Virus record (IMG/VR): IMGVR_UViG_3300011335_000900
Span: 32,001 to 96,000 of that record
Direction: 5' to 3' (one strand)
Length of the DNA stretch: 64,000 nucleotides
Source of the DNA: a virus
Both the position numbers and the translations under genes were made by a program. The notes under the pieces were generated by a model that worked only from the letters and a program-made list of their open reading frames with translations, did no database searches and was not told the DNA's origin. Below, one piece after another: positions 25,382-57,389 of the stretch (its first letter is position 1; each line of letters begins with the position of its first letter).

Positions 25382-25431
25382 GTATTAGGAGTATAATAGA
25401 CTTTTTTGTACATTTTAATATGTATAATAAA

Positions 25432-26118
25432 ATGGAAAATTTAAAAATTTGCTGTGAATGTAATATATCACTCACATTAAAACATTTTAGTAAAAATAAA
25501 AACACTAAAGATGGATATAATAATAGATGTAAATCTTGTTGTAGTTTTAGAAATAAAAAAAGATATGAACTAAACAAAGATAATATTAAAATTAAATGTA
25601 ATCAATATTATCATAGTAATAAAGAAATCATTAAAAATAAACAAATAGGAAAAATTAATTCATATCAAAAAAATAAAGAATGGCATTTAATTTATCGAGA
25701 AAAACACAAACAAAAATATCTTCAATATATTAAAGAATATCAAAAAATTAATCAACCTATAAAATATGCTACGGATTTAACATATAGAACTAAAAAATTA
25801 ATAGGAAACCAAATTAGAAATTTTTTAAAAGGAAATAAAAATAAAAAAACTGAAATACTTTTAGGATATTCATATCAAAACTTTATTAAAAATATAGGGA
25901 TTCCTAAAAAAAACGAACATATTGATCATAAAATACCAATAACCTGGTTTAAAGATATAACCCCAATCAACATTATTTGGAGTTTAGAAAATCTTCAAAT
26001 AGTTGATCAATTTTATAATCAATCAAAATCAAATAGATTTTTTGATATTGTTTCTTTAAAATATTTAAATATTGTTAAAATTTATATAAAAGAAGAATAT
26101 CAAAATAAATTAAATTAA
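25432..26118 (+). CDS. Free-standing HNH homing endonuclease
   Basis: N-terminal CxxC..CxxC Zn finger; EHIDHKIP...NLQ..N.SKSN HNH core; likely start at 25432 behind the late promoter at 25418. Confidence 0.85.
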   Translation: MENLKICCECNISLTLKHFSKNKNTKDGYNNRCKSCCSFRNKKRYELNKDNIKIKCNQYYHSNKEIIKNKQIGKINSYQKNKEWHLIYREKHKQKYLQYIKEYQKINQPIKYATDLTYRTKKLIGNQIRNFLKGNKNKKTEILLGYSYQNFIKNIGIPKKNEHIDHKIPITWFKDITPINIIWSLENLQIVDQFYNQSKSNRFFDIVSLKYLNIVKIYIKEEYQNKLN

Positions 26119-26134
26119 ATTAAAGTTATTAAAA

Positions 26135-26605
26135 ATGTTATATTCCGAACCTAACCTTAATATGTATAGTATATATCCACCATTGGAATATGATTTTGAT
26201 AATATATTAAACTATATGTCTAGCAATAGGTTGTTTTGCACTTTCTCCCCATTAGATGATTTAGATTCATTGATAAATGGACTTACATCACGTTATACAA
26301 TAATGTATAACAAAATGTTTGTGCTACATATTAAAAGCAACAATGAGTATGTTGTAACATACAATGTAGATCAAGGAAACATAAACGACATTCCAGACAA
26401 TACAATTTTAGTACATAGAAAAAAAGATTCCAACACACTCTATACAATTAATGCTTTAAATGAATTAATTAAAAAATTAAATGGTGGAGCAGTGGATACA
26501 AATTACCCAGTAAATTGGCAACATTACAGAAATTGTATATTGTTGACCCAACACAATGAAATTAAGCAACTTAATACAAAGATTTTTAAAATTATTGAAT
26601 TATGA
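26135..26605 (+). CDS. Hypothetical protein (NRLFCTF, VHRKKDSNTLYTINALN); real start possibly 26216
   Basis: Open frame with motif-like segments; a late promoter motif at 26160 lies inside the annotated 5' end. Confidence 0.6.
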   Translation: MLYSEPNLNMYSIYPPLEYDFDNILNYMSSNRLFCTFSPLDDLDSLINGLTSRYTIMYNKMFVLHIKSNNEYVVTYNVDQGNINDIPDNTILVHRKKDSNTLYTINALNELIKKLNGGAVDTNYPVNWQHYRNCILLTQHNEIKQLNTKIFKIIEL

Positions 26606-27153
26606 AGTTGTTAGATATATTAAGAGAATCAATTTCCTCTAACATATATAAAATTACATTTAATGATGATGAATTTGATATTGAAGGATCTAATTTAAAT
26701 GAAATATTAAAAATACCTAATTTAACATATGATATGGGTGGGGGGGAAAATGTTTATTATCCTTCTTCAAATGTTGTTGCTGTTGATTATATCGATGTTA
26801 ATGATTATGCTAGGTGGACTTTAGATGAATGGGGCGATGAATTAAGTGTAAAATATTACATATTACAAGATTTAAATATTCCATTTTCTTTCCCAAAAGC
26901 AAACGAAATCATTTTATCTAAAGTAGTAATTTATATAAAGAATATAGAAGCTTTAGCCCAATCAGTAAATAATTCATTAAAACCTAATGGAAAAATTGAA
27001 TTTTTTGCAGAACATGGGAAAAATACTTTAAGTAAAAAAGATATAAATTTTCTTCAAATATTAAATGAAAAATATTCTTTTCAATTTGAAAACAATCAAA
27101 CAATAGATCAATTAAAAAAAGATCCAACCCAAAGAATATACTTAAAAAAATAA
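26602..27153 (+). CDS. Class I SAM-methyltransferase-like protein with capsid-type leader
   Basis: YDMGGG..VVAVDY and SLKPNGKIEF motifs; N-terminus MKLLDILRES. Confidence 0.5.
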   Translation: MKLLDILRESISSNIYKITFNDDEFDIEGSNLNEILKIPNLTYDMGGGENVYYPSSNVVAVDYIDVNDYARWTLDEWGDELSVKYYILQDLNIPFSFPKANEIILSKVVIYIKNIEALAQSVNNSLKPNGKIEFFAEHGKNTLSKKDINFLQILNEKYSFQFENNQTIDQLKKDPTQRIYLKK

Positions 27154-27154
27154 A

Positions 27155-28030
27155 ATGACACAAGAACAACTCCGTATGCAAATGTTGGCTGGTATCATTA
27201 CTAAAGATCAATATAAAGCTAAATTAAATGAAGATTCTTCTGATAAATTAACTCTATATCTTTATACCCAAACCCCCATAGGCTGGGAAGGAGTAACTCT
27301 AATAAACTCAGTATTATGTGAAGTATCATATTCAAGTGGTAAGTTTGATTATGTATCTCTTAGAAAATATAAACCTACCAAAATAGATAAATTTGCAATA
27401 GATCACAGGAATTTTTCCGAAAGTGAATATGAAATTGTTACATCTTATTTAGATAAATTAAATATCCAATATAATCAATATCTTTATATAAAAGATGCAA
27501 GTAGTTATTCAAATATAGAAACTATTTTTACAAAAAATCCCCCAAACTTTGTTCCAAAAGATATAAAATTAAACACTGAAATATTAGATTTTTTTATAAA
27601 AAGAGATAATCCTGAACAAATTGAAGGAGATATTGTTTATGGAGATGTTTATGATTTTGGAGGTGCTGAAGGACCAATAGATAGTTCTCAAGCGGTTGTA
27701 GTAGATCTTTATTTAACCCCTAAACAAAAGAAAAATCCTTCTAAGTTTATAGAAGCTGATTTGAGTAAATATGTTGAACTTCCCCCAAAAAATGGAATTA
27801 ATATTTTTTCTGCAGTAGCTCAAATTAATTCTCCTAATAATCTATCAAAAACTATTAAACATGCCTTAAAACCTGGAGGGTTATTAGTTATTAAAGATCA
27901 TTTAGGAGCAGTTCAAAATCTTTTAAAATACTTAAAAGAATTTAAACTTTTAGAATTTGAATATGTTGATATAGAAGATGAAGAAAATATTACTTTATCT
28001 GATCAAATTTTTGTAGTATTAAAAAAATAG
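27155..28030 (+). CDS. Class I SAM-methyltransferase-like protein with scaffold-like leader
   Basis: YDFGGAEG..VVVDL and ALKPGGLLVIKD; N-terminus LRMQMLAGII. Confidence 0.55.
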   Translation: MTQEQLRMQMLAGIITKDQYKAKLNEDSSDKLTLYLYTQTPIGWEGVTLINSVLCEVSYSSGKFDYVSLRKYKPTKIDKFAIDHRNFSESEYEIVTSYLDKLNIQYNQYLYIKDASSYSNIETIFTKNPPNFVPKDIKLNTEILDFFIKRDNPEQIEGDIVYGDVYDFGGAEGPIDSSQAVVVDLYLTPKQKKNPSKFIEADLSKYVELPPKNGINIFSAVAQINSPNNLSKTIKHALKPGGLLVIKDHLGAVQNLLKYLKEFKLLEFEYVDIEDEENITLSDQIFVVLKK

Positions 28031-28088
28031 TTGGCTTAGCAAATAAAGGTTATTATATTTAGTTGTAAACAATAAAAAATAGTTATAT

Positions 28089-28907
28089 ATGAATCTAGAT
28101 GCAATCAAGAAGAAACTTGAATCCATGCAGTCCAAACCAACAGGGGGAGGTGCAAACAATCAAACCAAGCGATTTAAACCGCAAATTGGTAAACAAACGG
28201 TACGTGTTGTTCCGTTCAAATACAACAAGGAATTTCCATTCACGGAAATGAAATTTTACTATGGAATTGGTAGTAAAAAAGTAATTGCTTCTCCATTAAA
28301 TTGGGGTGAAAAAGATCCAATTGCTGAATTTGCAAAACAACTTCGTGGTACAAATGACAAAGAAAATTGGAGATTAGCTAAGAAATTAGACCCTAAAAAC
28401 CGTATTTTTGCTCCTGTAATTGTACGTGGTGAAGAGTCGGAAGGAGTTCAAATGTGGGAATTTGGTAAAGAAATTTACGAAGCATTTTTACAAATGGCCG
28501 CAGATGAAGAAGTAGGTGATTTTACAGACATTATGATGGGACGTGACATTAAGTTAGTTACAGTTGGACCTGATTCTACAGGAACAGTTTATAACAAAAC
28601 TACAATTACACCTTCTATGAAAACATCACCATTAACTGAAGATGAAAAATCTTTAGAATTATGGTTAGAGGATCAAGTTAATCCAAAAGAATCTTACAAA
28701 ATGCTTCCATTTGATGAAATCAAAGCAGCACTTGCAGAATGGTTAAATCCTGAAGAGGAAGAAGAATTTACTCCTGCTGATGGAAAATTAACAGTAGAGG
28801 AAAAACCAAAATCAAATTACAGTTTAACTACAAAACCAGAATCTAAGAAATCTAAAGCAGATAATTTTGATGCTTTATTTGAAGAAGATGATGATTTGCC
28901 ATTTTAA
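28089..28907 (+). CDS. Single-stranded DNA binding protein (gp32-like)
   Basis: Typical gp32-like layout (VRVVPF, WEFGKEIY, GRDIKL); acidic tail ending DDDLPF. Confidence 0.8.
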   Translation: MNLDAIKKKLESMQSKPTGGGANNQTKRFKPQIGKQTVRVVPFKYNKEFPFTEMKFYYGIGSKKVIASPLNWGEKDPIAEFAKQLRGTNDKENWRLAKKLDPKNRIFAPVIVRGEESEGVQMWEFGKEIYEAFLQMAADEEVGDFTDIMMGRDIKLVTVGPDSTGTVYNKTTITPSMKTSPLTEDEKSLELWLEDQVNPKESYKMLPFDEIKAALAEWLNPEEEEEFTPADGKLTVEEKPKSNYSLTTKPESKKSKADNFDALFEEDDDLPF

Positions 28908-28920
28908 TTTATATTAAAAT

Positions 28921-30015
28921 ATGGCAAAAACAATAACAACTAGAAAATCGCTAACTGAAGCGGCGGATAAAGAATTAAAATCCGCCTTTAGTTTAGACAA
29001 ATTTAAAGCGAATAAAGGTTTAGCATCTAATGTTAAATTCAAAGAACAAAAGTGGATACCATTTTCACCAGCGTTACAAGAAGCTTTATCTATTCCTGGA
29101 ATCCCTTTAGGCCATAATTCAATGGTTAGAGGAAAAAGTAACACAGGAAAATCTACTATGACCATTGAAGTAGCAGTTAATGCTCAAAAAATGGGAATAT
29201 TACCTGTATTAATCATCACTGAGATGAAACACGATTGGAACCACTGGAAAACAATGGGGTTTGAAATCGATGATGTAGTTGATACCGATACAGGAGAAAT
29301 AGTAGATCAAACTGGATTCTTTATTTACAGAGATAGAAGCTCTTTAAATTCAATTGAAGATATTGCTACATTCATAATTGATTTATTAACTGAACAAAAG
29401 AAAGGTAATCTACCATATGATTTACTCTTTATATGGGATTCAGTTGGTTCAATTCCTTGTGACATGTCCATTAATCAGGGGAAAAACAACCCAATGTGGA
29501 ACGCAGGAGCAATCGCAACTCAATTCGGTAACTTTATCAATCAACAGATTGTAATGTCTCGTAAGGAAAGTTCAAAATACACGAATACTCTGTTTATTGT
29601 AAACAAAGTAGGTGTAGCACCTGCCTTAACTCCAATGTCACAACCTAGAATGACAAACAAAGGTGGAGATACATTTTATTACGATGTTTCTTTATGTTTA
29701 ACATTTGGTAACGTTACAAATGCAGGTACATCAAAAATCAATGCTGTTAAAGATAAGAAAAAAGTTGAATTCGCATTACGTACTAAAATTGCTTGTGATA
29801 AAAATCACATTAATGGAATTACTACAATGGGAACTATTATATCAACAGTACATGGATTTATTAAAGATGACCCAAATGCAGTTAAAAAATATAAAGATGC
29901 ACACGTTAAAGAATGGGCAGATATATTGGGACAAGGTAACTACTCAGTCCAAGAAGATACTAGTGAGTGGGATGAAAAAGTAGCTACCCCAGATTTATTT
30001 GAAACCGAAGATTAA
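28921..30015 (+). CDS. uvsX: RecA/UvsX-like recombinase
   Basis: GKSNTGKST Walker A, IWDSVGS Walker B, KGG..FYY, KNH. Confidence 0.85.
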   Translation: MAKTITTRKSLTEAADKELKSAFSLDKFKANKGLASNVKFKEQKWIPFSPALQEALSIPGIPLGHNSMVRGKSNTGKSTMTIEVAVNAQKMGILPVLIITEMKHDWNHWKTMGFEIDDVVDTDTGEIVDQTGFFIYRDRSSLNSIEDIATFIIDLLTEQKKGNLPYDLLFIWDSVGSIPCDMSINQGKNNPMWNAGAIATQFGNFINQQIVMSRKESSKYTNTLFIVNKVGVAPALTPMSQPRMTNKGGDTFYYDVSLCLTFGNVTNAGTSKINAVKDKKKVEFALRTKIACDKNHINGITTMGTIISTVHGFIKDDPNAVKKYKDAHVKEWADILGQGNYSVQEDTSEWDEKVATPDLFETED

Positions 30016-31048
30016 TATGAAAAAAGACCTCTTAAACCTCCTTGATACTGTGCAAGAACATGGAGAAGAATTGCCACAATCAGAACGCTACCTGCTAATA
30101 GATGGACTTAACTTATTTTTTAGAAATTTTAGTGCTATAAATGCCGTAAATTCAAATGGAGTCCATATAGGAGGTTTAGGGGGATTTTTTCGATCTTTAG
30201 GAGCTTTAATTAGAACAATACAACCAACCCAAGTTTACATGGTGTTTGATGGTGTAGGCTCTTCCAATATTAGAAAAAATATTATTCCTGAATATAAATC
30301 AAATAGAAATACATCTCGAATAACTAAACACGAATTATTTGATAATTTAGAAGAAGAAGATGACTCTAAAATAAATCAAATTGTTCGCATCATCCAATAC
30401 TTAAAAACATTACCTGTTAAAACAGTATCTTTACCTACAGTAGAGGCGGATGATATCATCGCATATTTAAGCAGTACATTGCCTACAAAACCCGAAGACA
30501 GAGTATTCATAGTATCTAGCGATAAAGATTACCTGCAGTTAATTAGCGATAAAGTTATAGTCTACAGACCAATTGAAAAAGAATATTACACTACAGACAC
30601 AGTAAAAGAAAAATTCAATATTACCCCCCATAACTTCTTACTTTACAAGTTACTAATGGGAGATAATTCAGATGGTGTAACAGGTATTAAAGGATTAGGG
30701 GCAAAAGGTTTATTTAAACGATTCCCTGAACTTGCAACCCAAGATTTATCCTTTGATGATTTAATAAACTTAGCTGAAACTAAATTAAAAGAGCATATTA
30801 TATATGCAAGGGTATTACATAACATACCATTACTAGAAGACAAATATAGGGTAATGGATTTATCAAATCCTATGATGGATGATAAAGATAAAATGTTTAT
30901 TGATAAATTTGTAGAAAATACACCCTTAAATTTTCTTCCTGATACATTTGTTGAAATGTGCAATGAAGATCAAATTGGGAACCTAATAAGAAATACAGAT
31001 TATTGGGTTCGTGATATTTTTAAAGATTTGTTGGAAAACCAACAATAA
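29999..31048 (+). CDS. 5'-3' exonuclease/RNase H (FEN family)
   Basis: LLIDGLN, VFDG, YKSNR, EADDIIAY, SSDKDYLQL, GDNSDGVTGIKGLG; start may be 30017. Confidence 0.92.
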   Translation: MKPKINMKKDLLNLLDTVQEHGEELPQSERYLLIDGLNLFFRNFSAINAVNSNGVHIGGLGGFFRSLGALIRTIQPTQVYMVFDGVGSSNIRKNIIPEYKSNRNTSRITKHELFDNLEEEDDSKINQIVRIIQYLKTLPVKTVSLPTVEADDIIAYLSSTLPTKPEDRVFIVSSDKDYLQLISDKVIVYRPIEKEYYTTDTVKEKFNITPHNFLLYKLLMGDNSDGVTGIKGLGAKGLFKRFPELATQDLSFDDLINLAETKLKEHIIYARVLHNIPLLEDKYRVMDLSNPMMDDKDKMFIDKFVENTPLNFLPDTFVEMCNEDQIGNLIRNTDYWVRDIFKDLLENQQ

Positions 31049-31095
31049 GTTATTATATTTAAATAAAAGTTATTAACAATTAAAAAATTAAAGTT

Positions 31096-32454
31096 TTGAC
31101 ACTCTCCAGCATAGACGAATATGGCCCATCCTTCCAAATGAAGGTTATTTCATCACTCCTAACACATAAAGAATTTTTACAAAACATAAATGATGTACTA
31201 AGCGATGAATATTTTTCTAACCCTGCACATAAATGGGTTATAAATCAAATCATACAATATTATGAAAGCTATCACACAACTATATCCATGGATATTTTAA
31301 AAGTTGAAATGAAAAAACTTGATAACGAGGTACTTAAAGTATCTGTTAAAGAGCAATTACGTGAAGCATATAGAGCAGATTTAGAAGATTTAGAATATGT
31401 TCAACTTGAATTCTCAACATTTTGCAAAAATCAACAACTAAAAAAAGCACTACTAAATAGTGTAGATTTACTTAAAGCTGGAGATTACGATTCAATTAAA
31501 TACATGATTGAATCAGCAATGAAAGCTGGACAAGATAAAAACATAGGCCACGAATACAGAAAAGATACTGAATCACGTTATCGTGAAGATCACAGAACAA
31601 TAGTTCCATCTCCTTGGCCCGCTATTAATGAATTAATTCAAGGTGGTTTAGGAAACGGAGATTTAGGTTTAATTTTTGGTAGTCCGGGTGGGGGAAAATC
31701 ATGGACATTAGTTGCTTTAGGTGGATTTGCTGTTAAAATGGGATACAATGTTATTCACTATACTTTAGAATTAAGTGAATCCTATACAGGACGAAGATAC
31801 GATGCATTTTTTACAGGCTTACCAGTAGATTCTTTAGACAAAAATAAAGATCAAGTAAATAATATGATGTCTGATTTAAAAGGTGAATTGATAATTAAGG
31901 AATATCCTATGGGAAAAACTACAATAAACACAATAGAATCTCACATACAAAAAGTAAAAGATTTAGGGATTGAACCTGACCTTATCCTTATAGACTATAT
32001 TGATCTTCTTTCAACAAGAAAGAGAAATGTTGACCGTAAGGGAGAAATAGACGATATTTATACTAGTACCAAAGGATTAGCTAGAGAGCTTAATTTACCA
32101 ATTTGGTCAGTTTCCCAAGTAAATCGCGCGGGGGCTAAAGATGATGTTATTGAAGGTGATAAAGCCGCAGGTAGTTACGATAAAATGATGATTACCGATT
32201 TATCAATTTCATTGTCAAGAAAAAAAGAAGATAAAGTTAATGGAACCGGAAGATTCCATATCATGAAAAATAGATATGGGATGGATGGATTAACTTTTCA
32301 AGTAGATGTTAACACATCAAATGGTCACATTATTATTGGAGACCATTACGATGAAGAAGCAGATACAGTTGCACCAAGAAAGTCATTAAATGGTAATTTT
32401 GATGATTTAGATAGACAAATGTTAAGTAATAAATTTTTTGAATTAAACACATGA
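31096..32454 (+). CDS. dnaB: DnaB-like replicative helicase (gp41-like)
   Basis: GSPGGGKS, YTLELSE, LIDYIDLL, SQVNR, KNRYG; TTG start. Confidence 0.92.
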   Translation: MTLSSIDEYGPSFQMKVISSLLTHKEFLQNINDVLSDEYFSNPAHKWVINQIIQYYESYHTTISMDILKVEMKKLDNEVLKVSVKEQLREAYRADLEDLEYVQLEFSTFCKNQQLKKALLNSVDLLKAGDYDSIKYMIESAMKAGQDKNIGHEYRKDTESRYREDHRTIVPSPWPAINELIQGGLGNGDLGLIFGSPGGGKSWTLVALGGFAVKMGYNVIHYTLELSESYTGRRYDAFFTGLPVDSLDKNKDQVNNMMSDLKGELIIKEYPMGKTTINTIESHIQKVKDLGIEPDLILIDYIDLLSTRKRNVDRKGEIDDIYTSTKGLARELNLPIWSVSQVNRAGAKDDVIEGDKAAGSYDKMMITDLSISLSRKKEDKVNGTGRFHIMKNRYGMDGLTFQVDVNTSNGHIIIGDHYDEEADTVAPRKSLNGNFDDLDRQMLSNKFFELNT

Positions 32455-33401
32455 TAACAGAACCAAGACACTTTTACAAACCATTTGAATATCAAATTGC
32501 GTTTGATTTCTTTAAAGATCAACATCGAGTACACTGGCTAGCAGATGAGGTACCTTTATCTTCAGATTTAAATGACTGGAAACTTAAATTAAGTGAATCA
32601 GAAAAAAACTTAATTGGAAATATTTTAAAATCATTTACTCAAACAGAAGTACATGTTAACGATTATTGGTCTACAAAAGTATCAATGTGGTTTCCAAAAC
32701 CAGAAATTCAAGCTATGTCTCGTGTGTTTGCTGATTTTGAATCAATACATGCTGAAGCATATGCACGCTTAAATGAAGAATTAGGATTAGATGATTTTGC
32801 AGCTTTTATGGAAGATGAAGAAGCTAAAGCTAAAATTGATCGTTTAATTGAAACTCCGGGAGAAACATTAAGTGAAAAAGCTCTTTCATTAGCTATATTT
32901 TCTGCATTTACTGAAGGTGTAAATTTATTTTCTTCATTTGCTATTTTAATGTCTTTTCAATTACGAAACATGATGAAAGGAACAGGCCAAATTGTAGAAT
33001 ATAGTGTTAGAGATGAATCCTTACATTCAAAAGCAGGATGCTGGTTATTTAGAACATTAATGGAGGAAAATCCACATTTAGCTACAAAAGAATTTGAAGA
33101 CCAAATTTCAATAACTTGTGATATATCAGTACAATTAGAATTTGATTTTATTGACAAAGCATTTGAAATGGGTGAAGTTGAAGGTTTAAATAAAGACCAA
33201 TTAAAAAACTTTATTAAGGAACGTGCCAACCAAAAATTAATTGAATTAGGTTATAATCCTTTATACAACGATATCGATCCAAATTTATTAAAACAAATGG
33301 AATGGTTCGGACATTTAACAAGTGGTAAAAGTCATACCGATTTTTTTGCTCAAAGAGTTACTGATTATACAAAGTCTACTGCTGATTGGAGCGATTTGTA
33401 G
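32451..33401 (+). CDS. nrdB: Ribonucleotide reductase class I beta subunit
   Basis: ESIHAEAY, EGVNLFSSF, RDESLH, DFFAQRVTDY. Confidence 0.95.
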   Translation: MITEPRHFYKPFEYQIAFDFFKDQHRVHWLADEVPLSSDLNDWKLKLSESEKNLIGNILKSFTQTEVHVNDYWSTKVSMWFPKPEIQAMSRVFADFESIHAEAYARLNEELGLDDFAAFMEDEEAKAKIDRLIETPGETLSEKALSLAIFSAFTEGVNLFSSFAILMSFQLRNMMKGTGQIVEYSVRDESLHSKAGCWLFRTLMEENPHLATKEFEDQISITCDISVQLEFDFIDKAFEMGEVEGLNKDQLKNFIKERANQKLIELGYNPLYNDIDPNLLKQMEWFGHLTSGKSHTDFFAQRVTDYTKSTADWSDL

Positions 33402-33407
33402 ACAAGT

Positions 33408-33545
33408 ATGGACGAAAATATAATATATAAAATTGAAATTCTCCAACTTATTGAATCTAAATACAATATTGAAATAAAGGATGGAGAAGTTGAAAACATA
33501 TTAACTTTAGAAAACTTGATTGAACTAATAAAAAACAAACTATGA
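33408..33545 (+). CDS. 45-aa acyl-carrier-protein-like fragment, not in the ORF track
   Basis: IEILQLIESKYNIEIKDGEVENILTLENLIELIK resembles ACP helices II-IV; ATGA overlap with the next gene. Confidence 0.55.
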   Translation: MDENIIYKIEILQLIESKYNIEIKDGEVENILTLENLIELIKNKL

Positions 33546-36023: not shown

Positions 36024-36027
36024 AGCC

Positions 36028-47601: not shown

Positions 47602-47702
47602 ATTTATTCTTTTAAAATCTTTATATAGCAATCAAAAATAAATTAAAACAAAACAAACAACAAACACAACAAACAAAATAAACAAACTAAACAAACAAAA
47701 CA

Positions 47703-47975: not shown

Positions 47976-48040
47976 TTTTGTAAAAAACATTTGGAAATTT
48001 TAAAAAATTTCTGTATGTTAATTTATATTAAATAAAGTTT

Positions 48041-48862: not shown

Positions 48863-48870
48863 AAAAGGTT

Positions 48871-49296: not shown

Positions 49297-49697
49297 AAAA
49301 TTGGAGTAAAAAAGTACACGTACAATCATCTCTAGAATCTAAGCCAAATCAATATGCAATGTTTATTGGTCGTTGGCAACCATTACATGATGGGCATAAA
49401 GCATTATTTCAACAAGCTTTAGACGAAGGTAAAAATATCTGGATTGCAATCAGAGATGTTAAAACAACAGAATCTAACCCATTTAATGCTCAAGAAGTAC
49501 TTGAAAATATTGGAAACGAATATAAAGAACTTTGTGGACAAGGTAAAGTTAAAGTTAGTATCATCCCTGACATATGTTCAGTTGAATTTGGTAGAGGAGT
49601 TGGCTATGATATTATTGAACACACACCACCACAAGAAATACACGATATATCAGCAACAAAAGTTAGAGAACAAATGCGTAAAGAAGGAAAGTTATGA
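49293..49697 (+). CDS. HxGH nucleotidyltransferase (possible minimal ATP sulfurylase)
   Basis: FIGRWQPLHDGH, NPF, GRGVGY, ISATKVR; likely ATG at 49293 overlapping the cysC stop. Confidence 0.75.
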   Translation: MKNWSKKVHVQSSLESKPNQYAMFIGRWQPLHDGHKALFQQALDEGKNIWIAIRDVKTTESNPFNAQEVLENIGNEYKELCGQGKVKVSIIPDICSVEFGRGVGYDIIEHTPPQEIHDISATKVREQMRKEGKL

Positions 49698-50140
49698 ATA
49701 CAAAATCTCAAAAATTCCAAATTAGATTTAATACAGTATCTACATGCGAAGAAGACCGTTGGCGTTTAATTACCGATGGTGAAGAAATTTTAGTATCTAA
49801 CATTGTAGTAGATGGACACACATCCACTTCTAAAGATTGGATGCAAGATATCAAAGATTACAAATGGCATATCAGCTGTGAAGGATATGTTAGTATTAAA
49901 AATAATATAGCATATATAGTAACCATCAAAGAGGAATCAGTGATGACTCGACACATATTAAAAACAATATCGTATCGTATTTTAGGAACATTAACTACAG
50001 TAACAATAGCTTATTCTTTAGGTGCTTCTTTAGAAGTTTCATCTATGCTTGGAGTAGGTGAATTAGTACTTAAACCGGTAATTTATTTCTTTCACGAACG
50101 TGTTTGGTATAAGTACATTAGAATAGGATCAAAAAAATAA
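49694..50140 (+). CDS. Protein with C-terminal DUF2061-like membrane domain
   Basis: RHILKTISYRILGT...YFFHERVW. Confidence 0.7.
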   Translation: MNTKSQKFQIRFNTVSTCEEDRWRLITDGEEILVSNIVVDGHTSTSKDWMQDIKDYKWHISCEGYVSIKNNIAYIVTIKEESVMTRHILKTISYRILGTLTTVTIAYSLGASLEVSSMLGVGELVLKPVIYFFHERVWYKYIRIGSKK

Positions 50141-50143
50141 AAA

Positions 50144-51022
50144 ATGGAAGAAAAATACATAGTTTGGCACATTGAAGGTGGCCTAGGAAAAAACATTGCT
50201 GCTACATCATTATTAAGTAGCTTAAAAGAAAAACACCCAGATAGAAAAATAGTTGTAGTAGCTTCATACCCTGAAATATTTTTAAATTTACCCTCAGTTT
50301 ACAGAGTATATAGATTAGGTTCAACCCAATACTTTTATGATGACTATATTAAAAATAAAGATACAATAGTATTTAAACATGAACCATACTATGAAACACA
50401 ACATATATTAAAAAACAAACATCTAATTGCAAATTGGTGTAAAATATTAGATATTGAATATACTTTTCAATCCCCTGTTTTAAATTTTAATTTTATACAT
50501 CAATTAAATGCTACAAAATGGAATAGAGAAAAACCTATTTTACTTATCCAAACTAATGGAGGTATATTAAATAGTGATTTAACATATTCTTGGACAAGAG
50601 ATTTACCTTTTTATTTATCTACCCAAATAGCTAACAAATATAAAGAAACACATCATATTATACAAGTATGTAAACCTTCTTCTTTAAAAATAGAGGGAGC
50701 AGAAATTATAGACTATACGCTATCAGCTATGGAATTATTTACATTATTAGCGGTAAGTGATAAACGTATATTAATTGATTCTAGTTTACAACATGCTGCG
50801 GTAGCATTAAATGTTCCCTCTACTGTATTTTGGATTGGAACTTCACCAAAAAACTTTGGATATGCATTTCACAATAACATAATTGCAAATCCTCCTACAG
50901 ATACAACAAAATTAATTGATGCTTATTTATTTGATTATTCTTTTGAGGGAGTTACTCATGAATGCCCATATTACAGTTTAGAGGAAATGTTTGATGTTCC
51001 TAAAATTTTAGAGAAAATTTAA
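50144..51022 (+). CDS. Glycosyltransferase (GT9/heptosyltransferase-like)
   Basis: GGLGKNI N-terminus; IDSSLQHAAVALNVPSTVFW. Confidence 0.75.
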   Translation: MEEKYIVWHIEGGLGKNIAATSLLSSLKEKHPDRKIVVVASYPEIFLNLPSVYRVYRLGSTQYFYDDYIKNKDTIVFKHEPYYETQHILKNKHLIANWCKILDIEYTFQSPVLNFNFIHQLNATKWNREKPILLIQTNGGILNSDLTYSWTRDLPFYLSTQIANKYKETHHIIQVCKPSSLKIEGAEIIDYTLSAMELFTLLAVSDKRILIDSSLQHAAVALNVPSTVFWIGTSPKNFGYAFHNNIIANPPTDTTKLIDAYLFDYSFEGVTHECPYYSLEEMFDVPKILEKI

Positions 51023-51073
51023 GTAAACTTGGCTTTTTAAAATACTTTTAGTATATTTAAGAAAATAAAGGTT

Positions 51074-51583
51074 ATGCTATTTACAACTTCTGATCCAAAA
51101 GTAGTACTTAAAGAGATATCAAAATTACAACCCCTAAATTACAACCAATTTAAATGGTGGAGACGTTTTGACACCAAACTTAAACCATTACCACGTGGGG
51201 TTAAATTTATTGATCGCATTAAAAACGGTGAATATGAATTTTCACATTACTACTGGCAATGGAAATTATCTGAGTTAGAAATCAACGAAAAATACATAGA
51301 ATACAACGGAGATATACAAAAATTACTTGAAAAAAACGGAGTAGATCTAGCTCGTAGAAAACGTTTAATAGAGGATTTCAATGCAGACGAAGCTAGTAAA
51401 CTATCAAACCTTAAAAAAGGATTTTTACGTGAATTCGTAATGACAAAAGAAGAATATGAAGATCATATTACAGATTTTGATGGTACAACTGAAGAATTTT
51501 ATATGTATTGTTTAAAAACATTTGATCGTTCTGGAAAACAAACAGAAAAACGTGGTCGTCCTAAAAAATCCGAAAATATTTAA
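51074..51583 (+). CDS. Hypothetical protein with C-terminal AT-hook-like KRGRPKK
   Basis: Host-type promoter at 51029. Confidence 0.55.
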   Translation: MLFTTSDPKVVLKEISKLQPLNYNQFKWWRRFDTKLKPLPRGVKFIDRIKNGEYEFSHYYWQWKLSELEINEKYIEYNGDIQKLLEKNGVDLARRKRLIEDFNADEASKLSNLKKGFLREFVMTKEEYEDHITDFDGTTEEFYMYCLKTFDRSGKQTEKRGRPKKSENI

Positions 51584-51639
51584 AAAAACTTGGAAATATT
51601 AATTTTCTTTTGTATATTTTAATTATAAAAATAAAAGTT

Positions 51640-51891
51640 ATGACATCAACAAAAACATTTAAAACCAAATTTCGATTATTTTTACGCAGATTTGGAATGT
51701 TATGTAAGAAAAAACAACCACCTAGAAAAGGAGTTCGAATTTCAAGAACAATTATGCCGGATGGCAAAATAATTGAACATGGTGGATTTACTGAAAAACC
51801 ACCACTAAATAATCAATCATTTTTATCTGAACTTCATATTTACCATGAACTAAAAAATTCAGTAAAATTTAAACAACCTAAAAAAAAGTAA
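51640..51891 (+). CDS. Basic hypothetical protein
   Basis: Promoter at 51590; aaagttATG start context at 51640. Confidence 0.45.
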   Translation: MTSTKTFKTKFRLFLRRFGMLCKKKQPPRKGVRISRTIMPDGKIIEHGGFTEKPPLNNQSFLSELHIYHELKNSVKFKQPKKK

Positions 51892-51909
51892 CCCCCTAAA
51901 ACCAGTTAT

Positions 51910-52227
51910 ATGAAATCAGTTATGAATAAAGAACTAGTATTATCAACATTAAAAAAAGTATTTAGTTACGGAGTAATCGTAGGAGCATTAGTATTAGGAT
52001 TTTTCATTGGAAGATATACCCAAAATTATCCCCCTACACCAAAATCAAATGCATATTCAAATATTTATTCTACCTCTAACGTATCAATTGCGGTAAATGA
52101 AGGAAATGAATTAATGTTAATTGACCGTGCAAGTGGAAACTATCAAATGTATTCAGATTCAATTGGAATGACAATATTTAAAATGTATTCAAATAGAATT
52201 TACCAAAATGCAAATGTAAATGAATAA
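51910..52227 (+). CDS. Membrane-anchored hypothetical protein
   Basis: Single TM segment; overlaps the transglycosylase gene start. Confidence 0.55.
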   Translation: MKSVMNKELVLSTLKKVFSYGVIVGALVLGFFIGRYTQNYPPTPKSNAYSNIYSTSNVSIAVNEGNELMLIDRASGNYQMYSDSIGMTIFKMYSNRIYQNANVNE

Positions 52228-52741
52228 ATTAAAATTTTTGGGTATAGCCGCTATATTTTTAGCGGTTATATCCTCCTTTAGGCTTTTAACCCCTGAAGAA
52301 GTCGTCACATCCCCCATAAGAAAAAGTTTTACAGTAAATGTAACTGATCCACCTTGCATTCAAGTATATAGTTGTATTGAATTTTATGCAGATTCATTTA
52401 ATATCCCTAGACAATATGCATATGGAATAGCATCGTTAGAAACAGGATATAAAGGTCCATTTCATTGGAAATATAAAAATACTCAAATATCCTCCACTGG
52501 AGCTTTAGGACCTATGCAAGTTTTAAAATCAACTGCACGTTGGGTAAACAAAGATCAAGTATCTAAAGAAATATTGTTAAATGATGTAAAATATAATATA
52601 ATGACCTCAATGAAATATTTAAGAATGTTACATAACCAATATAAAAATTGGAAAATTGTATTTGGATATTACAACACCGGTTACCCTAGAGTAAATAGTT
52701 ATGCAGAAAGAGTATATAATCATAAAATAGATTGGAGATGA
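52220..52741 (+). CDS. Lytic transglycosylase (SLT domain), signal-anchored
   Basis: IASLETG, SSTGALGPMQV, YLRML, YYNTG. Confidence 0.85.
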   Translation: MNKLKFLGIAAIFLAVISSFRLLTPEEVVTSPIRKSFTVNVTDPPCIQVYSCIEFYADSFNIPRQYAYGIASLETGYKGPFHWKYKNTQISSTGALGPMQVLKSTARWVNKDQVSKEILLNDVKYNIMTSMKYLRMLHNQYKNWKIVFGYYNTGYPRVNSYAERVYNHKIDWR

Positions 52742-52986
52742 AAAAAGTAGTTTGTATCAATGATAGGAAGTTACCTGAGGGTGCTGAAGTTGTAAATGGA
52801 AAAGAATATGAAGTTTTAGAAGAATTTTTAAACAATTATGATCAACGAGTGTTTATTATAGCTGGAATAAAAAATAAAGGAACAACTAAAATGGGACTAC
52901 GTTGGATAGGATATGATGCATCTCGTTTTGCAAACCTAGAATCAATAGCTATAGAATCATACGAACACGTATATGCAGAAAATTAA
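52732..52986 (+). CDS. Hypothetical protein
   Basis: VVCIND..GKEYEV..YDASRF SH3-like pattern. Confidence 0.5.
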   Translation: MEMKKVVCINDRKLPEGAEVVNGKEYEVLEEFLNNYDQRVFIIAGIKNKGTTKMGLRWIGYDASRFANLESIAIESYEHVYAEN

Positions 52987-53395
52987 TATAAAAAGAGGAG
53001 TTATAGCAGGAAACTTTGATGTACTCCATCCAGGATACATTGCAATGTTTGAGGAGTGTAAAAAACACTGTGATAGATTAATAATATGTTTACATGAAGA
53101 TCCCTCTATTGAACGACCAGAAAAACTTAAACCAATTTTACATTGGTCCGATCGAGTAAAAATTCTTTCTTCACTTAGACAAGTTGATTATGTATTTCCA
53201 TATCAAACAGAGGAAGATCTATATGAAGCTTTAATTAAAGGAAACTTTGATGTTCGATTTTTAGGTGATGATTATATAGGAAAACCATTTACTGGAGATG
53301 ATTTAGATATTCCTATACAGTATTTAAATAGAGATCATGGATGGTCAACAACAATGTACAAACAATTAATAGCAGATAGTTTAAACAAAAAATAA
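52973..53395 (+). CDS. Cytidylyltransferase (TagD/RfaE-like)
   Basis: AGNFDVLHPGY, KPI, GDDY, RDHGWSTT. Confidence 0.85.
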   Translation: MQKINIKRGVIAGNFDVLHPGYIAMFEECKKHCDRLIICLHEDPSIERPEKLKPILHWSDRVKILSSLRQVDYVFPYQTEEDLYEALIKGNFDVRFLGDDYIGKPFTGDDLDIPIQYLNRDHGWSTTMYKQLIADSLNKK

Positions 53396-53398
53396 ATT

Positions 53399-53782
53399 AT
53401 GAAAGCAAGTGAATTAAGGATTGGTAATTTAGTAGATTTAGGTAATAGAATTGCTAAAGTTATTGAAATTAACCATTTAGCGTGTGTAGTAGTTAATTTA
53501 GAAGAAACTCAGGATACTATAGAAGATTACGAACGTGTAAAGCCTATTAAATTAACAGAAGAATGGTTGTTGAAGTTTGGGTTAAAACCAAATCAATGGT
53601 TTTGTTCAAACAGCTATTGTGTTGTTGAAGATAAAACAGGCGATATTCATTATGGATGGTGTATGAAAACACAAAATTCTTTACATACAAAAGAGATTGA
53701 GTTTGGATATTTTAAATACGTTCACCAATTTCAAAACTTATACTTTGCAATAATAGGAGAAGAACTTATATTAAAAGAGTAA
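53399..53782 (+). CDS. Hypothetical phage protein (ELRIGN...LTEEWLLKFG...VHQFQNLYF family)
   Basis: Motif pattern familiar from Bacteroidota phages and prophages. Confidence 0.6.
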   Translation: MKASELRIGNLVDLGNRIAKVIEINHLACVVVNLEETQDTIEDYERVKPIKLTEEWLLKFGLKPNQWFCSNSYCVVEDKTGDIHYGWCMKTQNSLHTKEIEFGYFKYVHQFQNLYFAIIGEELILKE

Positions 53783-53847
53783 TATAAATGTTTTATTGTT
53801 TCCCACATTTTTTATTGTCTTCCACATATGTATAATAAACGGGAAAT

Positions 53848-54453
53848 ATGAAAAAAAGTGGAATTTATAAAATTATAAACCCAAAAGGTGAAGTTTATAT
53901 AGGATGTTCACAAAATATCCATGTTAGATGGATGAATTACAAGAATAGTAGTAAAACTGAAAAACAACCAAAATTAAATCAATCTTTTGAAACCTATGGT
54001 TTTGAAAATCATGTATTTGAAGTGATAGAAGATATTGAAATTTTGCTAGCTCAACGAGAAAAATATTGGATTGAATTCTATAATTCATATGGTAAAGGCT
54101 TAAATTCAAATCTTGGAGGAGGCGGAGTAGAAGCTCATAATGAAAATACTCGAAAACTTATTAGTGAAAAGGGAAAATTAAATGTAGGGAAAAGAAAAAA
54201 TTCACATTGGAAAGGTAAAAATAGAAGTGAAGAATCTAAACTTAAAATGAGCCAATCTAAAAAAGGAAAATCCATCCCATCTAACAACAAACCTATCCTC
54301 CAATTCAGTAAACAAGGTCAATTCCTTCAAGAATATTCTAGCATTGAAGAAGCTGCTAGAAATATTAGTGGAAATCCTACAGCAATAAACAACGCTCTAA
54401 AAAAAGGAGAAAATGCTACATCTTCTGGTTATATTTGGAGATATAAAATTTAG
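53848..54453 (+). CDS. Free-standing GIY-YIG homing endonuclease (NUMOD3 and C-terminal HTH)
   Basis: SGIYKI..VYIG, REKYWI, GLN, SEESKLKMS, EYSSIEEAAR..GYIWRY. Confidence 0.9.
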   Translation: MKKSGIYKIINPKGEVYIGCSQNIHVRWMNYKNSSKTEKQPKLNQSFETYGFENHVFEVIEDIEILLAQREKYWIEFYNSYGKGLNSNLGGGGVEAHNENTRKLISEKGKLNVGKRKNSHWKGKNRSEESKLKMSQSKKGKSIPSNNKPILQFSKQGQFLQEYSSIEEAARNISGNPTAINNALKKGENATSSGYIWRYKI

Positions 54454-54480
54454 TTATTATATTTAATAAAATTTAAAGTT

Positions 54481-55275
54481 ATGAAAAAAATAAAAATTAG
54501 CCACGAGGTGCCATTTTGTCTATTAACAAAAAGTCGAGAATTCAATGATTTTGATTATTGCTTGCCCCATTTAATGGATGAAAACGAAGAATATCGTGTA
54601 TTTTTTCAAAATTCAAAAAATATAGCACGCTATATTGTAATGGACAATTCACTCCATGAACTTGGAGAAGCATATAGTACAGACCGTTTAATGTATTGGG
54701 TAAATAAACTTGAACCAAATGAATTCATTGTACCTGATGTTTGGGAAGACTATACTGCTTCAGTTAGAAATGCAAAACAATGGGCAAACATCCAACTCCC
54801 AGAAAATACAACTAAAGTAGCTGTTGTGCAAGCAAAAAGTTTACACGAAGCTAATTTATGTGTTCAAGCATATAAAGATTTAGGATACAAGAAAATTGCA
54901 TTTTCATATGGTGCTTCATATTATAATGATATTTGCCCACATCCAAATCAAGATTTAGGTAAAGCTATTGGAAGATTTATGGTAATTTCTACTATGTTTA
55001 GAGATAAAACAATTACTAATACAGATCGAATCCATTTACTTGGAACTGCTTCCCCTATTGAATTTGGAATGTATAAAAATATGCCATTTATTGAATCTAT
55101 TGATACCTCAAATCCAATTATGGCAGCAATTGGTGAAATGCCATATACAAAAATGGGATTACATTTAAAACCAATGGCCAATATGAACAAACACCAAGAT
55201 ATAAGCAAAGAGTTTGTTAACGAGGATCTTGTAGATTTCAATGTTGAAATGTTTCGCACAATAAATGGACTTTAA
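54481..55275 (+). CDS. dpdA: TGT-fold 7-deazaguanine DNA modification protein (DpdA-like)
   Basis: MDNS, VPDV, VAVVQ, HLLG, SIDTS TGT-type motifs; next to queC/D/E and folE. Confidence 0.7.
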   Translation: MKKIKISHEVPFCLLTKSREFNDFDYCLPHLMDENEEYRVFFQNSKNIARYIVMDNSLHELGEAYSTDRLMYWVNKLEPNEFIVPDVWEDYTASVRNAKQWANIQLPENTTKVAVVQAKSLHEANLCVQAYKDLGYKKIAFSYGASYYNDICPHPNQDLGKAIGRFMVISTMFRDKTITNTDRIHLLGTASPIEFGMYKNMPFIESIDTSNPIMAAIGEMPYTKMGLHLKPMANMNKHQDISKEFVNEDLVDFNVEMFRTINGL

Positions 55276-55323
55276 TTTGGAGTCTATATTTTCTTTTCGT
55301 ATATTTAATCAAAAATAAAAGTT

Positions 55324-55581
55324 ATGGAATATTTGTCGCTTTATGACTTTTTAGGAAAAGCTGCAGGCAATGATCTAGGAAAAGAAGTAGCAGCTGCTGC
55401 TTATAAAGCAGGTATTAAAATGCAAGAAAGAGAAATCTCAAATCCAAAATATACAGGTATTGTACATTTGTATCCTAAAGATTTCTTAGATTTCTATTTT
55501 AGAGAACCAGAATTAAATTTAATGGATGAATTACCTGGATCACTTAATAGAGTTATTGATGAAGATGATTTACCCTTTTAA
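55324..55581 (+). CDS. Small protein ending in SSB-like tail EDDLPF
   Basis: Own host-type promoter at 55277. Confidence 0.6.
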   Translation: MEYLSLYDFLGKAAGNDLGKEVAAAAYKAGIKMQEREISNPKYTGIVHLYPKDFLDFYFREPELNLMDELPGSLNRVIDEDDLPF

Positions 55582-55583
55582 TT

Positions 55584-55754
55584 ATGGATAAATTAACAAA
55601 ACAGGAATTTGAAAAATTCCGTGAACTGTGGAAAGAAGAATGGTATACTCATTGGAGATTATTAGATATAGATTTTGAATGTTATATGCTAATGAAAGGA
55701 TTAACAAAACAAGAATATAAAAATTTAAATAGTGAATTATGGCAAAACATGTAG
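55584..55754 (+). CDS. 56-aa hypothetical protein, not in the ORF track
   Basis: MDKLTKQEFEKFRELWKEEW...ELWQNM*; starts 2 nt after the upstream stop. Confidence 0.55.
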   Translation: MDKLTKQEFEKFRELWKEEWYTHWRLLDIDFECYMLMKGLTKQEYKNLNSELWQNM

Positions 55755-55782
55755 TAGTTAAGTTGTGACTTTAGCAGGAGGA
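55739..55782 (+). pseudogene. Remnant of an ancestral queC 5' end
   Basis: ATG GCA AAA CAT GTA GTA GTT (MAKHVVV), then shifted GTG ACT TTA GCA GGA GGA (VTLAGG), versus functional QueC DHVVLSLSGG. Confidence 0.65.
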
Positions 55783-55817
55783 TACAATATGTATAACCGA
55801 CAGATAAATACATAACT

Positions 55818-56480
55818 ATGCCTTCAAAAGAATATATGAAAGAATATAGGAGAAGAAAAAATCCTAAAATTCTAGAAAAAGAAGAACTTGCTCAACAAGA
55901 AAAAAGACGTTGTACAAAATGTTCTGTTATTAAATCATTTGAGTCATTTGTCCCCCAAAAAGCAGGATATATGGGAATAAAATCTCAATGTAAAGAATGC
56001 GATACAGAATACGATAAACAGTTCCAATCTAAAACCAATGCTAGAGCTAAGCGGGATAAAACAGACAAAGCTAAGCAATATAGAAAAAAATATGTAGCTG
56101 AAAATTTAGATTGGTGGAGAAAGTATGAAAGAGAATACAGATACAACCGTAGAAAAGAAGACATGTTTTTTAAAATAAAGGGAAACATGTCTGGAAGGTT
56201 ATCTGACTTGATTAACAAAAGAAATTTAGGTACTACTACTCTTGAACTTATAGGATGTGATCGAGAAACTTTTCTATCCCATATTGAAAAACAATTCACC
56301 GAAGGAATGACATGGGAAAACTATGGTTTAAAAGGATGGCATGTAGATCATATTCTCCCATTATCTTCATTTGACTTAACTGTAGAGGATGAAGTAAAAA
56401 AAGCTTGCCACTATACAAACCTTCAACCACTTTGGTGGCAAGATAACTTGGAAAAGGGTAATAAAGTTAGTATATTATAA
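55818..56480 (+). CDS. Free-standing HNH homing endonuclease
   Basis: CxxC..CxxC finger; GMTWENYG..WHVDHILP...HYTNLQPLW..DNLEKGN. Confidence 0.9.
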   Translation: MPSKEYMKEYRRRKNPKILEKEELAQQEKRRCTKCSVIKSFESFVPQKAGYMGIKSQCKECDTEYDKQFQSKTNARAKRDKTDKAKQYRKKYVAENLDWWRKYEREYRYNRRKEDMFFKIKGNMSGRLSDLINKRNLGTTTLELIGCDRETFLSHIEKQFTEGMTWENYGLKGWHVDHILPLSSFDLTVEDEVKKACHYTNLQPLWWQDNLEKGNKVSIL

Positions 56481-56540
56481 TAAAGGTTTGAAGTTCCATA
56501 ACCTATAAATACCGGAACAAAGTTTTAAAATTATAAAAAT

Positions 56541-57389
56541 ATGAACAAACAAAAAGATCATGTAGTTTTATCCCTAAGTGGAGGTCTAGATTCAAGCACC
56601 CTTTTACTTAGATGCTTAAAAGAATATAAAAGCGTTACTGCAATCTCATTTGACTATGGACAAAAACATCGAATAGAGTTAGATAGAGCACAGTCATTAG
56701 TAGATTATATTAATTTAACTTACTCTCCAATCCGTTATCGTCAAATTCAATTAAATGGATTAGCTGACCTACTAAACTCAGCTTTAGTAACAGGTGGAGA
56801 AGAAGTACCTGAAGGACACTATGCTGAAGAAAACATGAAAGCAACAGTTGTTCCAAACAGAAATAAAATATTTGCTTCAATTATCCAAGCAGTAGCACTT
56901 TCAATCGCAGATGAAACAGATGAGCAATGTGATATTGCAATGGGAATCCATGCAGGCGATCACGCAATTTATCCAGATTGTAGACAAGAATTTAGAGATG
57001 CAGATGATACAGCCTTTAGAATTGGAAATTGGGGATCTGAAAAAGTAGGTTACTTTACACCATATCTTGAAGGAGATAAATTTACTATTTTACAAGATGG
57101 TGAAATGTTATGTGATGAACTTGGCTTAAACTTTAACGAAGTATACAAACGCACAAATACTTCATATAAGCCTATATATCACGAACTAGCTTACGAGGAA
57201 GGTATGGATATAGTTGATGCTTCAGGATGGTTTTCTGATTACAAATCAGCAAGTTCCGTGGAGCGTGTAGAGGCTTTTATTAAATTGGGAAGAAAAGATC
57301 CTGTAGGATATGCTGATGAAACAGGTCCTGTAAATTGGGAACACGTAGTAAATGAAGTAACAAAAGTGTTAGAAACACATAATAATTAA
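56541..57389 (+). CDS. queC: 7-cyano-7-deazaguanine synthase (Zn-site variant)
   Basis: SLSGGLDS, FDYGQKH, VPNRN, YPDCR. Confidence 0.9.
   Translation: MNKQKDHVVLSLSGGLDSSTLLLRCLKEYKSVTAISFDYGQKHRIELDRAQSLVDYINLTYSPIRYRQIQLNGLADLLNSALVTGGEEVPEGHYAEENMKATVVPNRNKIFASIIQAVALSIADETDEQCDIAMGIHAGDHAIYPDCRQEFRDADDTAFRIGNWGSEKVGYFTPYLEGDKFTILQDGEMLCDELGLNFNEVYKRTNTSYKPIYHELAYEEGMDIVDASGWFSDYKSASSVERVEAFIKLGRKDPVGYADETGPVNWEHVVNEVTKVLETHNN

Follow-up and report, generated by a model that had tools for sequence, protein, structure and literature searches.

The window considered here is the whole of a 64,000-nucleotide (nt) stretch of viral DNA, covering bases 32001-96000 of a viral contig that is 129,105 bases long (IMG/VR record IMGVR_UViG_3300011335_000900); among named relatives, Flavobacterium phage immuto is the nearest, and nearly all genes are on the + strand. 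Three of these genes (g57, g95 and g99) encode nucleases of free-standing type, and 5' of each lies a short sequence that resembles part of the gene downstream of that nuclease (g58, g96 and queC, respectively). A preliminary description of the window had pointed out these three look-alikes, and its coordinates for all of them proved correct. We describe the cassettes in which they lie, together with a fourth nuclease encoded elsewhere in the same genome, and weigh what the look-alikes may be.

The reference for insertions was one nuclease-free contig, sampled as loci L007, L088 and L340, which matches the window at 93-99% identity across long stretches and is without all four nucleases. Against this background, the three inserts of the window have one layout: each starts just past an upstream gene, continues with the look-alike, a promoter and the nuclease gene, and ends inside the downstream gene, within its first 15-45 codons, so that the cassettes supply this gene with a replacement 5' segment. 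The insertion breakpoints, together with the likeness to nuclease-free alleles detailed below, bear out the earlier proposal that the look-alikes are target-derived or target-like sequences in mobile nuclease cassettes.

The promoters of the cassettes belong to a type defined by the motif ATAT[GT]TATAA[TC], of which 22 copies occur genome-wide about 20 nt 5' of start codons. Because copies precede two tail sheath genes and one tail tube gene, the label ‘late promoter’ is reasonable, and its use in the preliminary description stands. Within the window, ATATGTATA is found in six copies versus 2.2 expected. The G form of the motif makes up 10 of the 22 copies, and 6 of these 10 precede nuclease genes. 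Two promoter forms can be told apart, namely ATATGTATAA (10 occurrences), found 5' of six nuclease genes, and ATATTTATAA, found 5' of tail sheath, tail tube and other genes; among relatives, homologous cassettes alternate between G and T. Late-type copies in the window are situated at 13612, 25418, 35802, 53826 and 55787.

The conserved elements of the first, second and fourth cassettes are specific to these cassettes, being absent both from other late promoters and from nuclease-free loci. That they are a general promoter element was rejected on two grounds, as no upstream sequence is common to the 22 late-type promoters and as the nuclease-free loci are without them; a role as a -35 box was likewise rejected, the spacing to TATAAT being unfit in all three look-alikes of the window. 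A scan of positions 24000-58000 against Rfam at the gathering score returned zero RNA families and, hence, no group I or II intron.

The first cassette and the genes on either side of it are made up as follows:

24134..25381, + strand: g56, upstream backbone gene and left homology flank of cassette 1; the immuto homologue is annotated as DNA polymerase family A
25384..26223, + strand: cassette 1 (look-alike, late promoter, nuclease and donor-type first 30 codons of g58), absent from L007
25389..25415, + strand: look-alike 1, with a conserved core GAGTATAA..GACTTTTTTG at 25389-25408 and 21 nt reading NRLFCTF at 25395-25415, then TAA
25416..25431, + strand: late-type promoter TAATATGTATAATAAA of nuclease 1, by motif match
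25432..26118, + strand: g57, HNH/Endo VII-type free-standing nuclease (PHROG 1035 ‘endonuclease VII’, E 4.9e-13)
26135..26605, + strand: g58, probable target gene, with codons 1-30 donor-type and NRLFCTF at 26225-26245

Only 23500-25383 and 26224-26610 of the region align to L007, with left homology stopping at 25383, and a second pair of loci (L017 versus L050) has equivalent breakpoints. The upstream gene g56 is 98-100% identical at the amino acid (aa) level in the nuclease-free loci L007-L016 and L019, and g57 is lacking at 78 of the 80 relatives' loci. The 21 nt of the look-alike and the NRLFCTF codons of g58 are identical at 15 positions, and all six differences are silent. Natural alleles of g58 match the look-alike at 16-19 of 21 nt (18-19 for most), and no allele is further from it than that of the carrier itself; among the more distant nuclease-free loci, most alleles reach 18-19 nt, which places them nearer to the look-alike than the carrier allele. 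The core has been kept at 18-20 of 21 nt in L017 and L236, versus 48-67% identity at four-fold sites of the nuclease gene, and is absent from every nuclease-free locus among L007-L086. The donor-type tract of g58 stops at the same motif: homology with L007 resumes at 26224, one base 5' of NRLFCTF. This heptapeptide is otherwise invariant among relatives, in-motif aa changes being confined to L236 and L237, both of them carriers of the nuclease, and an extra codon precedes RLFCTF in 5/5 carriers versus 1/78 non-carriers.

The donor-type 5' segment of g58 also contains a copy of ATATGTATA (26160-26168) over its N-M-Y codons, which recur in the g58 alleles of several relatives; the copy could be an internal promoter or mere coding sequence. 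Immediately downstream of g58, the window has another insertion that L007 and L017 lack (26611-28026), with open reading frames (ORFs) 26602-27153 and 27155-28030. The first 28 residues of the latter are common, at 82% identity, to two other ORFs of the genome (65461-65856 and 74235-74747 in window coordinates), and this common start looks like an N-terminal tag on otherwise unrelated proteins.

The second cassette contains a nuclease of a different catalytic family:

53405..54461, + strand: cassette 2 (ORF 53399-53782, tandem look-alikes, promoter and GIY-YIG nuclease), an insertion versus L087 and L089
53792..53827, + strand: look-alike 2, tandem 17-nt units at 53792-53808 and 53811-53827 with a period of 19 and the consensus TTTAYTGYYYCCCRCAT
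53826..53839, + strand: late-type promoter ATATGTATAATAAA of the GIY-YIG gene, by motif match
53848..54453, + strand: g95, GIY-YIG free-standing homing endonuclease (Pfam, PHROG 314, I-TevI domain)
54481..55275, + strand: g96, probable target gene, with a weak DUF6610 match (‘DpdA-like’ in the preliminary description) and a donor-type patch at 54525-54564
54554-54570, + strand: operator-like site in g96, with YCLPH at 54556-54570

The assignment of g95 is based on its catalytic domain (Pfam PF01541, E 9.1e-7, 29.5 bits with a cut-off of 22.6), a NUMOD3 DNA-binding module (PF07460, E 6.5e-5, 23.2 bits with a cut-off of 20.4) and a match to the I-TevI catalytic domain (1mk0/1ln0, E ~5e-6; 4.9e-6 for 1mk0). 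The nuclease is present in L115-L123 and not in L087-L114, and all nine homologues are directly 5' of g96. Relative to L088, the insertion spans 52988-54480. A nucleotidyltransferase-like ORF at 52973-53395 (PHROG 7878, E 9e-35), found in L087 and L089 and not in L088, represents a further indel adjoining the cassette.

The two units of look-alike 2 read YCFPH and YCLPH, the second merging into the ATATGTATA promoter at 53826. The element is seen in all nine homologous cassettes, and its repeats are identical at 32-34 of 36 nt (89-94%), versus 53-73% at four-fold sites of the nuclease gene (seven pairs). With a position weight matrix (PWM) made of the repeat units only, the top-scoring match is the g96 site that encodes YCLPH in 13 of 28 nuclease-free loci if both strands are considered and in 20 of 28 on the + strand; across the 129-kb genome, 9 of ~258,000 positions reach the score of the genome's own site, and these include the two repeats and the site itself. 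No copy of look-alike 2 scoring at least 20 bits was present across the 28 nuclease-free loci.

Seven differences clustered at 54525-54564 make up the donor-type patch of g96; they reproduce the allele of the carriers L115-L117, which is elsewhere much less similar, the patch as such is common to the carriers L115-L118, and the tract stops right at the look-alike site. The carrier changes consist of DYD to DFD and the loss of a Cys, which is missing in 8/10 carrier rows versus 7/28 non-carrier rows. Scores of the repeat PWM on g96 average 2.6 in carriers (n=7) versus 8.6 in non-carriers (n=25), with a one-sided Mann-Whitney p of 0.021 that is uncorrected for relatedness. In the nuclease-free locus L089, the 15 nt over YCLPH are identical to those of g96 in the window. 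The preliminary description had expected codons of the look-alike type in nuclease-free relatives; most of the more distant g58 alleles do come closer to the look-alike, whereas this is untrue of the 11 loci nearest to the window at g58 and of L089 at g96.

The third cassette lies shortly downstream of the second:

55739..55760, + strand: stranded original queC start (ATG..HVVV), the scar part of look-alike 3, equal to the functional queC start of the nuclease-free L088
55761..56603, + strand: cassette 3 (internal element 55761-55784, promoter 55786-55797, nuclease and new queC 5' end), an insertion versus L088
55818..56480, + strand: g99, HNH/Endo VII-type free-standing nuclease (PHROG 1035, E 1.1e-22)
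56541..57389, + strand: queC, probable target gene (QueC E 8.9e-36), with the 5' end donor-type to ~56655 and SGGLDS at 56577-56594

The nucleases g57 and g99 are paralogous, and an H..DH...N motif is visible in translation; Pfam HNH gave zero matches for g57 and a match below threshold (E 0.2) for g99. A PDB sequence search did not find a solved relative of either, and searches of Pfam, NCBIfam and PDB sequences did not yield a more precise placement of g57, g99, g58 or g96. Homologues of g99 are immediately 5' of queC in 16 of 16 cases. Look-alike 3 consists of a stretch CATGTAGTAGTT (HVVV) and TTAGCAGGAGGA (a shifted LxGG) at 55748-55783, 5' of ATATGTATA at 55787, the corresponding residues of queC being HVVLSLSGG at 56559-56585. 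The preliminary description had regarded the look-alikes as non-coding, which requires correction for the HVVV stretch, as this is partly coding (the 3' end of ORF 55584-55754). The internal 25 nt of the cassette, to which the LxGG of the preliminary description belongs, are conserved in part of the nuclease family.

At this locus, the look-alike is for the most part a scar. In L088, queC begins MAKHVVVSLSGGMDS and its start overlaps the final part of the ORF upstream; exactly this start is retained in the window through HVVV, followed by cassette 3 and then by a new queC start, MNKQKDHVVLSLSGGLDS. Other carriers retain the old start to variable extents (12 codons in L158/159, as far as the codon that follows SGG, and less in L160/170 and L162/164), and these lengths place the queC insertion point at the codon after SGG. 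That codon is Leu in 15/18 carrier rows, whereas in non-carriers it is Met in 19/21 and Leu in 1/21 (a few rows are duplicate contigs). The window, L158/159, L160/170 and L162/164 thus combine a spare with a stranded 5' segment of queC, whereas cases 1, 2 and 4 have a spare segment and no full stranded part.

A mirror architecture was seen at L021:2180-3000, where a different HNH nuclease (44% identical) has its gene within the 3'-terminal part of g56, the polymerase-like gene, and supplies a new 3' end of that gene, the old 3' end being stranded downstream of the nuclease; L018:2926-3000 resembles this arrangement minus the nuclease. Together, the queC locus and this mirror case suggest a route by which copies can arise, that is, from stranded gene ends.

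The fourth case was treated as an advance prediction that an element at the promoter of a nuclease would match the gene downstream:

G000:C1:104974-105597 (outside the window): fourth nuclease, an HNH/Endo VII-type paralogue, with an own-genome upstream rank (explained below) of 10

Relative to a nuclease-free relative, the insert corresponds to L239:1948-2572. All seven homologues are directly 5' of gene g126 and have a nearly invariant 22-nt element abutting a promoter of the same type, with at most 2 of 22 nt varying among four variants. When a matrix of this element was applied to 49 nuclease-free loci, the best + strand match was one homologous site of g126 (codons 41-47) in 21 of them; the match scores 11.4 bits in nine loci, and one non-self position in the genome itself reaches 11.4. 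The element reads MHRFVSL and the g126 site IHRYVSM. Lys replaces Arg at the site in 4/5 unique carrier alleles versus 2/23 unique non-carrier alleles, and the donor-type tract of g126 ends at the look-alike site. A search of the own genome with the element returned only itself and near matches at background level.

Chance was assessed in two ways. An exact-peptide test of 66 intergenic gaps (three frames) against 162 proteins comprised 32,076 comparisons, 110 of which match over at least 5 aa and two over at least 7 aa; one of these two is NRLFCTF, and the other, TLYLNNF, is AT-rich, 26 genes distant and clearly fortuitous. In a rank test, the 90 nt 5' of every gene were compared with ~159 proteins of the genome, and the rank of the next gene was recorded: the next gene was best for two of six nucleases (ranks 1, 1, 10, 28, 29 and 123) versus none of 149 other genes, in keeping with the earlier expectation that such matches would be rarer 5' of non-nuclease genes. 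Chance as the origin of look-alikes 1 and 2 was rejected by these two tests. The queC case fails the rank test (29) and rests on the comparison with relatives.

Two further genes outside the window may be mentioned. At G000:C1:96725-96784 (window coordinates 64725-64784), two promoter-like motifs, 36 nt apart, lie 5' of a second GIY-YIG gene, with TTTTAAATTAAAARCCCA conserved between them in five homologous loci, and a target look-alike was not found for this gene. At G000:C1:126500-126610, a truncated HNH paralogue, alignable over its first 54 residues only, comes after a sequence that ends like the T-arm and acceptor stem of a tRNA.

Several features recur across the cases. In three cassette families, the third being that outside the window, the elements are either conserved above silent sites or nearly unchanged among relatives, and the donor-type tract has its far end at the look-alike site in cases 1, 2 and 4; at queC, the site coincides with the insertion point. 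The tract ends and the allele signatures suggest that the look-alike site is the homing site. On this basis, we lean slightly towards regarding the look-alikes as mimics of target half-sites that act as I-TevI-like operators in homing cassettes that bring along a spare 5' gene segment, and partial gene duplication is their probable origin. Four cassettes of free-standing nucleases (three of them in the window) would each have homed into the start of their own downstream gene, each consisting of a short target-like element, an abutting late promoter, a nuclease gene and a replacement 5' segment of the target, the changes in which would protect the allele of the carrier itself from being cut. 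What the element would copy is the conserved, bindable part of the target, minus the neighbouring part by which cuttable alleles are distinguished from uncuttable ones. Because the element lacks this neighbouring variable part, the nuclease could occupy it without cutting and thereby damp its own late transcription, as I-TevI does in T4. The elements most probably started as pieces of the target's 5' end that were stranded by partial duplication at insertion, as is still visible at queC. The places of binding and cutting, as well as repression, are our inferences from these comparisons.

A number of observations weigh against this reading. The 11 nearest nuclease-free loci have the same rare NRLFCTF codons as this genome (20/21 nt identical), and the motif of L017, a carrier, is an ordinary allele. 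The preliminary description had interpreted the codons as silent recoding that renders the carrier's own allele immune. It was right that the motif codons in carrier genes are the rarer ones (AGG 5%, TTG 5%, TGC 27%, TTC 13% and CCC 8% of the family), and the signatures that carriers consistently show are changes next to or within the site; the motif's silent recoding, however, is not among them, the nearest relatives having the same codons, and the interpretation therefore appears only partly right. At cassette 3, an nhmmer profile of the internal 25-nt element (12 cassettes) did not match queC in 27 nuclease-free loci and the masked genome (the best queC-adjacent match had an E of only ~100), which leaves the supposed queC-likeness of its LxGG part unsupported; in 3 of 11 pairs, the element is less conserved than silent sites. 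The visible look-alike at queC is explained by the insertion scar and the overlapping upstream ORF. Probabilities from the matrices are moderate (~0.002-0.02 per gene) and post hoc for cases 1 and 2, and, as the replacement segment moves with the cassette, the counts that set carriers against non-carriers lack phylogenetic independence.

Other observations in the same direction concern generality. Two of the six nucleases of this genome, g27 and g112, are without a look-alike in the own-genome test (ranks 28 and 123). Among 96 HNH and GIY-YIG loci in distant genomes, 54 were usable and 45 remained after removal of duplicates; these 45 show no enrichment, with four at or above the 95th percentile of the null (2.3 expected) and one at or above the 99th (0.5 expected). 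This test is weak evidence against generality because it used the carriers' own alleles and 6-aa windows and would miss cases 3 and 4. The general system envisaged in the preliminary description is not borne out by these results, and we consider it doubtful, if conceivable, that self-regulation through a copy of the bound target half, placed beside the promoter, extends to many free-standing homing endonucleases from unrelated catalytic families.

Four other explanations were considered. The look-alikes could be pure scars, i.e. functionless leftovers of partial duplication that appear conserved owing to recent descent or to the adjacent promoter. The stranded original queC start, plain in the window and in the three other carrier groups named above, agrees well with this, as do the stranded 3' end of g56 in the L021 mirror case and the exclusively silent differences of case 1, which are expected of a copy of a once-coding allele. 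Nevertheless, such an origin alone seems unlikely: elements 1, 2 and 4 exceed the conservation of four-fold sites even where the nucleases are only 58-84% identical, the tandem pair of case 2 is not predicted, the copies in cases 1, 2 and 4 correspond to codons 25-47 and lack any vestige of the preceding codons, and these three look-alikes lie within the mobile insert and not in recipient DNA. A plain insertion scar, named as an alternative in the preliminary description, thus mostly accounts for the queC case, whereas cases 1 and 2 are not plain scars. A related idea is that the look-alike is kept as a left homology arm for the broken target, such that repair copies the cassette much as exons guide intron homing. 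At queC, the cassette lies between the remnant and the functional gene exactly as it would between two exons, and the left part of the remnant is recipient-type in the window. The arms would, however, be just 17-21 nt long with 13-19 nt identical, the left junction of case 1 falls at the g56 stop codon in two independent pairs, outside the look-alike, that of case 4 falls at the stop of g124, and a tandem repeat would be unnecessary for such a role; we judge this explanation very improbable.

The elements might instead belong to the promoter or be bound by another factor; their resemblance to the downstream gene would then be a coincidence aided by AT-rich composition. The modest per-gene probabilities, the lack of enrichment at distant loci and the fortuitous second heptapeptide match are what one would then expect. 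Four different elements beside one promoter type that each match their own downstream gene are not, and neither are the absence of first ranks among the control genes, the coincidence of the matched sites with tract ends and allele signatures, or the discovery of the fourth case through prediction, so that this explanation appears quite improbable. The last possibility, also raised in the preliminary description, is that the element is a guide-like RNA or a decoy that absorbs a competitor's nuclease. Sequence likeness alone speaks for it; the elements are upstream of the promoter of the nuclease, a match to an RNA family is lacking in 24000-58000, and a decoy would require more than the one or two copies present in each genome, which together make it highly implausible.

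Free-standing homing endonucleases are abundant in phages and shape both recombination boundaries and competition between phages. Those known as SegF, SegG and MobE, enzymes of intronless homing and marker exclusion, are encoded by intergenic genes next to a conserved target, co-convert flanking markers and are present or absent among close relatives. The cassettes described here resemble these and F-CphI in having an intergenic nuclease gene, an adjacent conserved target gene, co-conversion of the flank and a patchy presence in close relatives. Properties of SegF, SegG and MobE are covered in part in PMC2988022, and F-CphI is a free-standing homing endonuclease of the Endo VII-motif family (PMC6083498, in part). 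The operator of I-TevI, which is encoded in the T4 td intron, overlaps the enzyme's own late promoter and has 15 of 20 nt in common with the homing site; I-TevI binds it as well as the target and cuts it ~100-fold less, the operator being devoid of features required for cutting, so that binding leads to repression (PMC2988022, in part). The arrangement here is alike in that a sequence resembling the presumed homing site is situated at the enzyme's own late promoter, and g95 has a homologous GIY-YIG catalytic domain and a NUMOD3 motif. It differs in that the nucleases are free-standing rather than intron-encoded, with three of the four being of the HNH/Endo VII type, and in that the element of the GIY-YIG nuclease is a tandem pair and the mimicked site is in a neighbouring gene, 25-47 codons in. 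The position abutting the promoter is an observed feature here, from which binding would be predicted to repress.

A further parallel is provided by fungal mitochondrial introns with partial N-terminal duplications (PMC7315562; PMC8393795, both in part). Here, as in these Tremella-type introns, a mobile element carries a spare 5' part of its host gene, the original 5' part is stranded and the gene is partially replaced by foreign sequence (PMC7315562; PMC8393795, both in part). Unlike these elements of fungal organelles, those described here are phage cassettes with promoters, the Rfam scan is without an intron and the gene is intact downstream. Target-like operators are known for T4 intron endonucleases; for promoter-side look-alikes at free-standing phage nucleases, no description was found in searches of open-access full text.

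To our knowledge, the targets of nearly all free-standing phage homing endonucleases are unknown, and the finding is of interest because it offers a way of predicting nuclease targets from sequence. If the favoured reading is true, both the target gene of an uncharacterised nuclease and its approximate cut site could be read by computer: one would find the cassette-specific conserved element at the promoter and then seek it in nuclease-free alleles of the neighbouring gene. This procedure has worked once, blind, on the fourth nuclease. Gene pieces stranded by insertion would, likewise, be raw material for the evolution of operators, and the dual role of I-TevI as nuclease and repressor would be a common solution rather than a curiosity. 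For the phages concerned, the cassettes rewrite the first 15-45 codons of genes of replication and of the 7-deazaguanine pathway and, hence, represent a concrete route of mosaic evolution.

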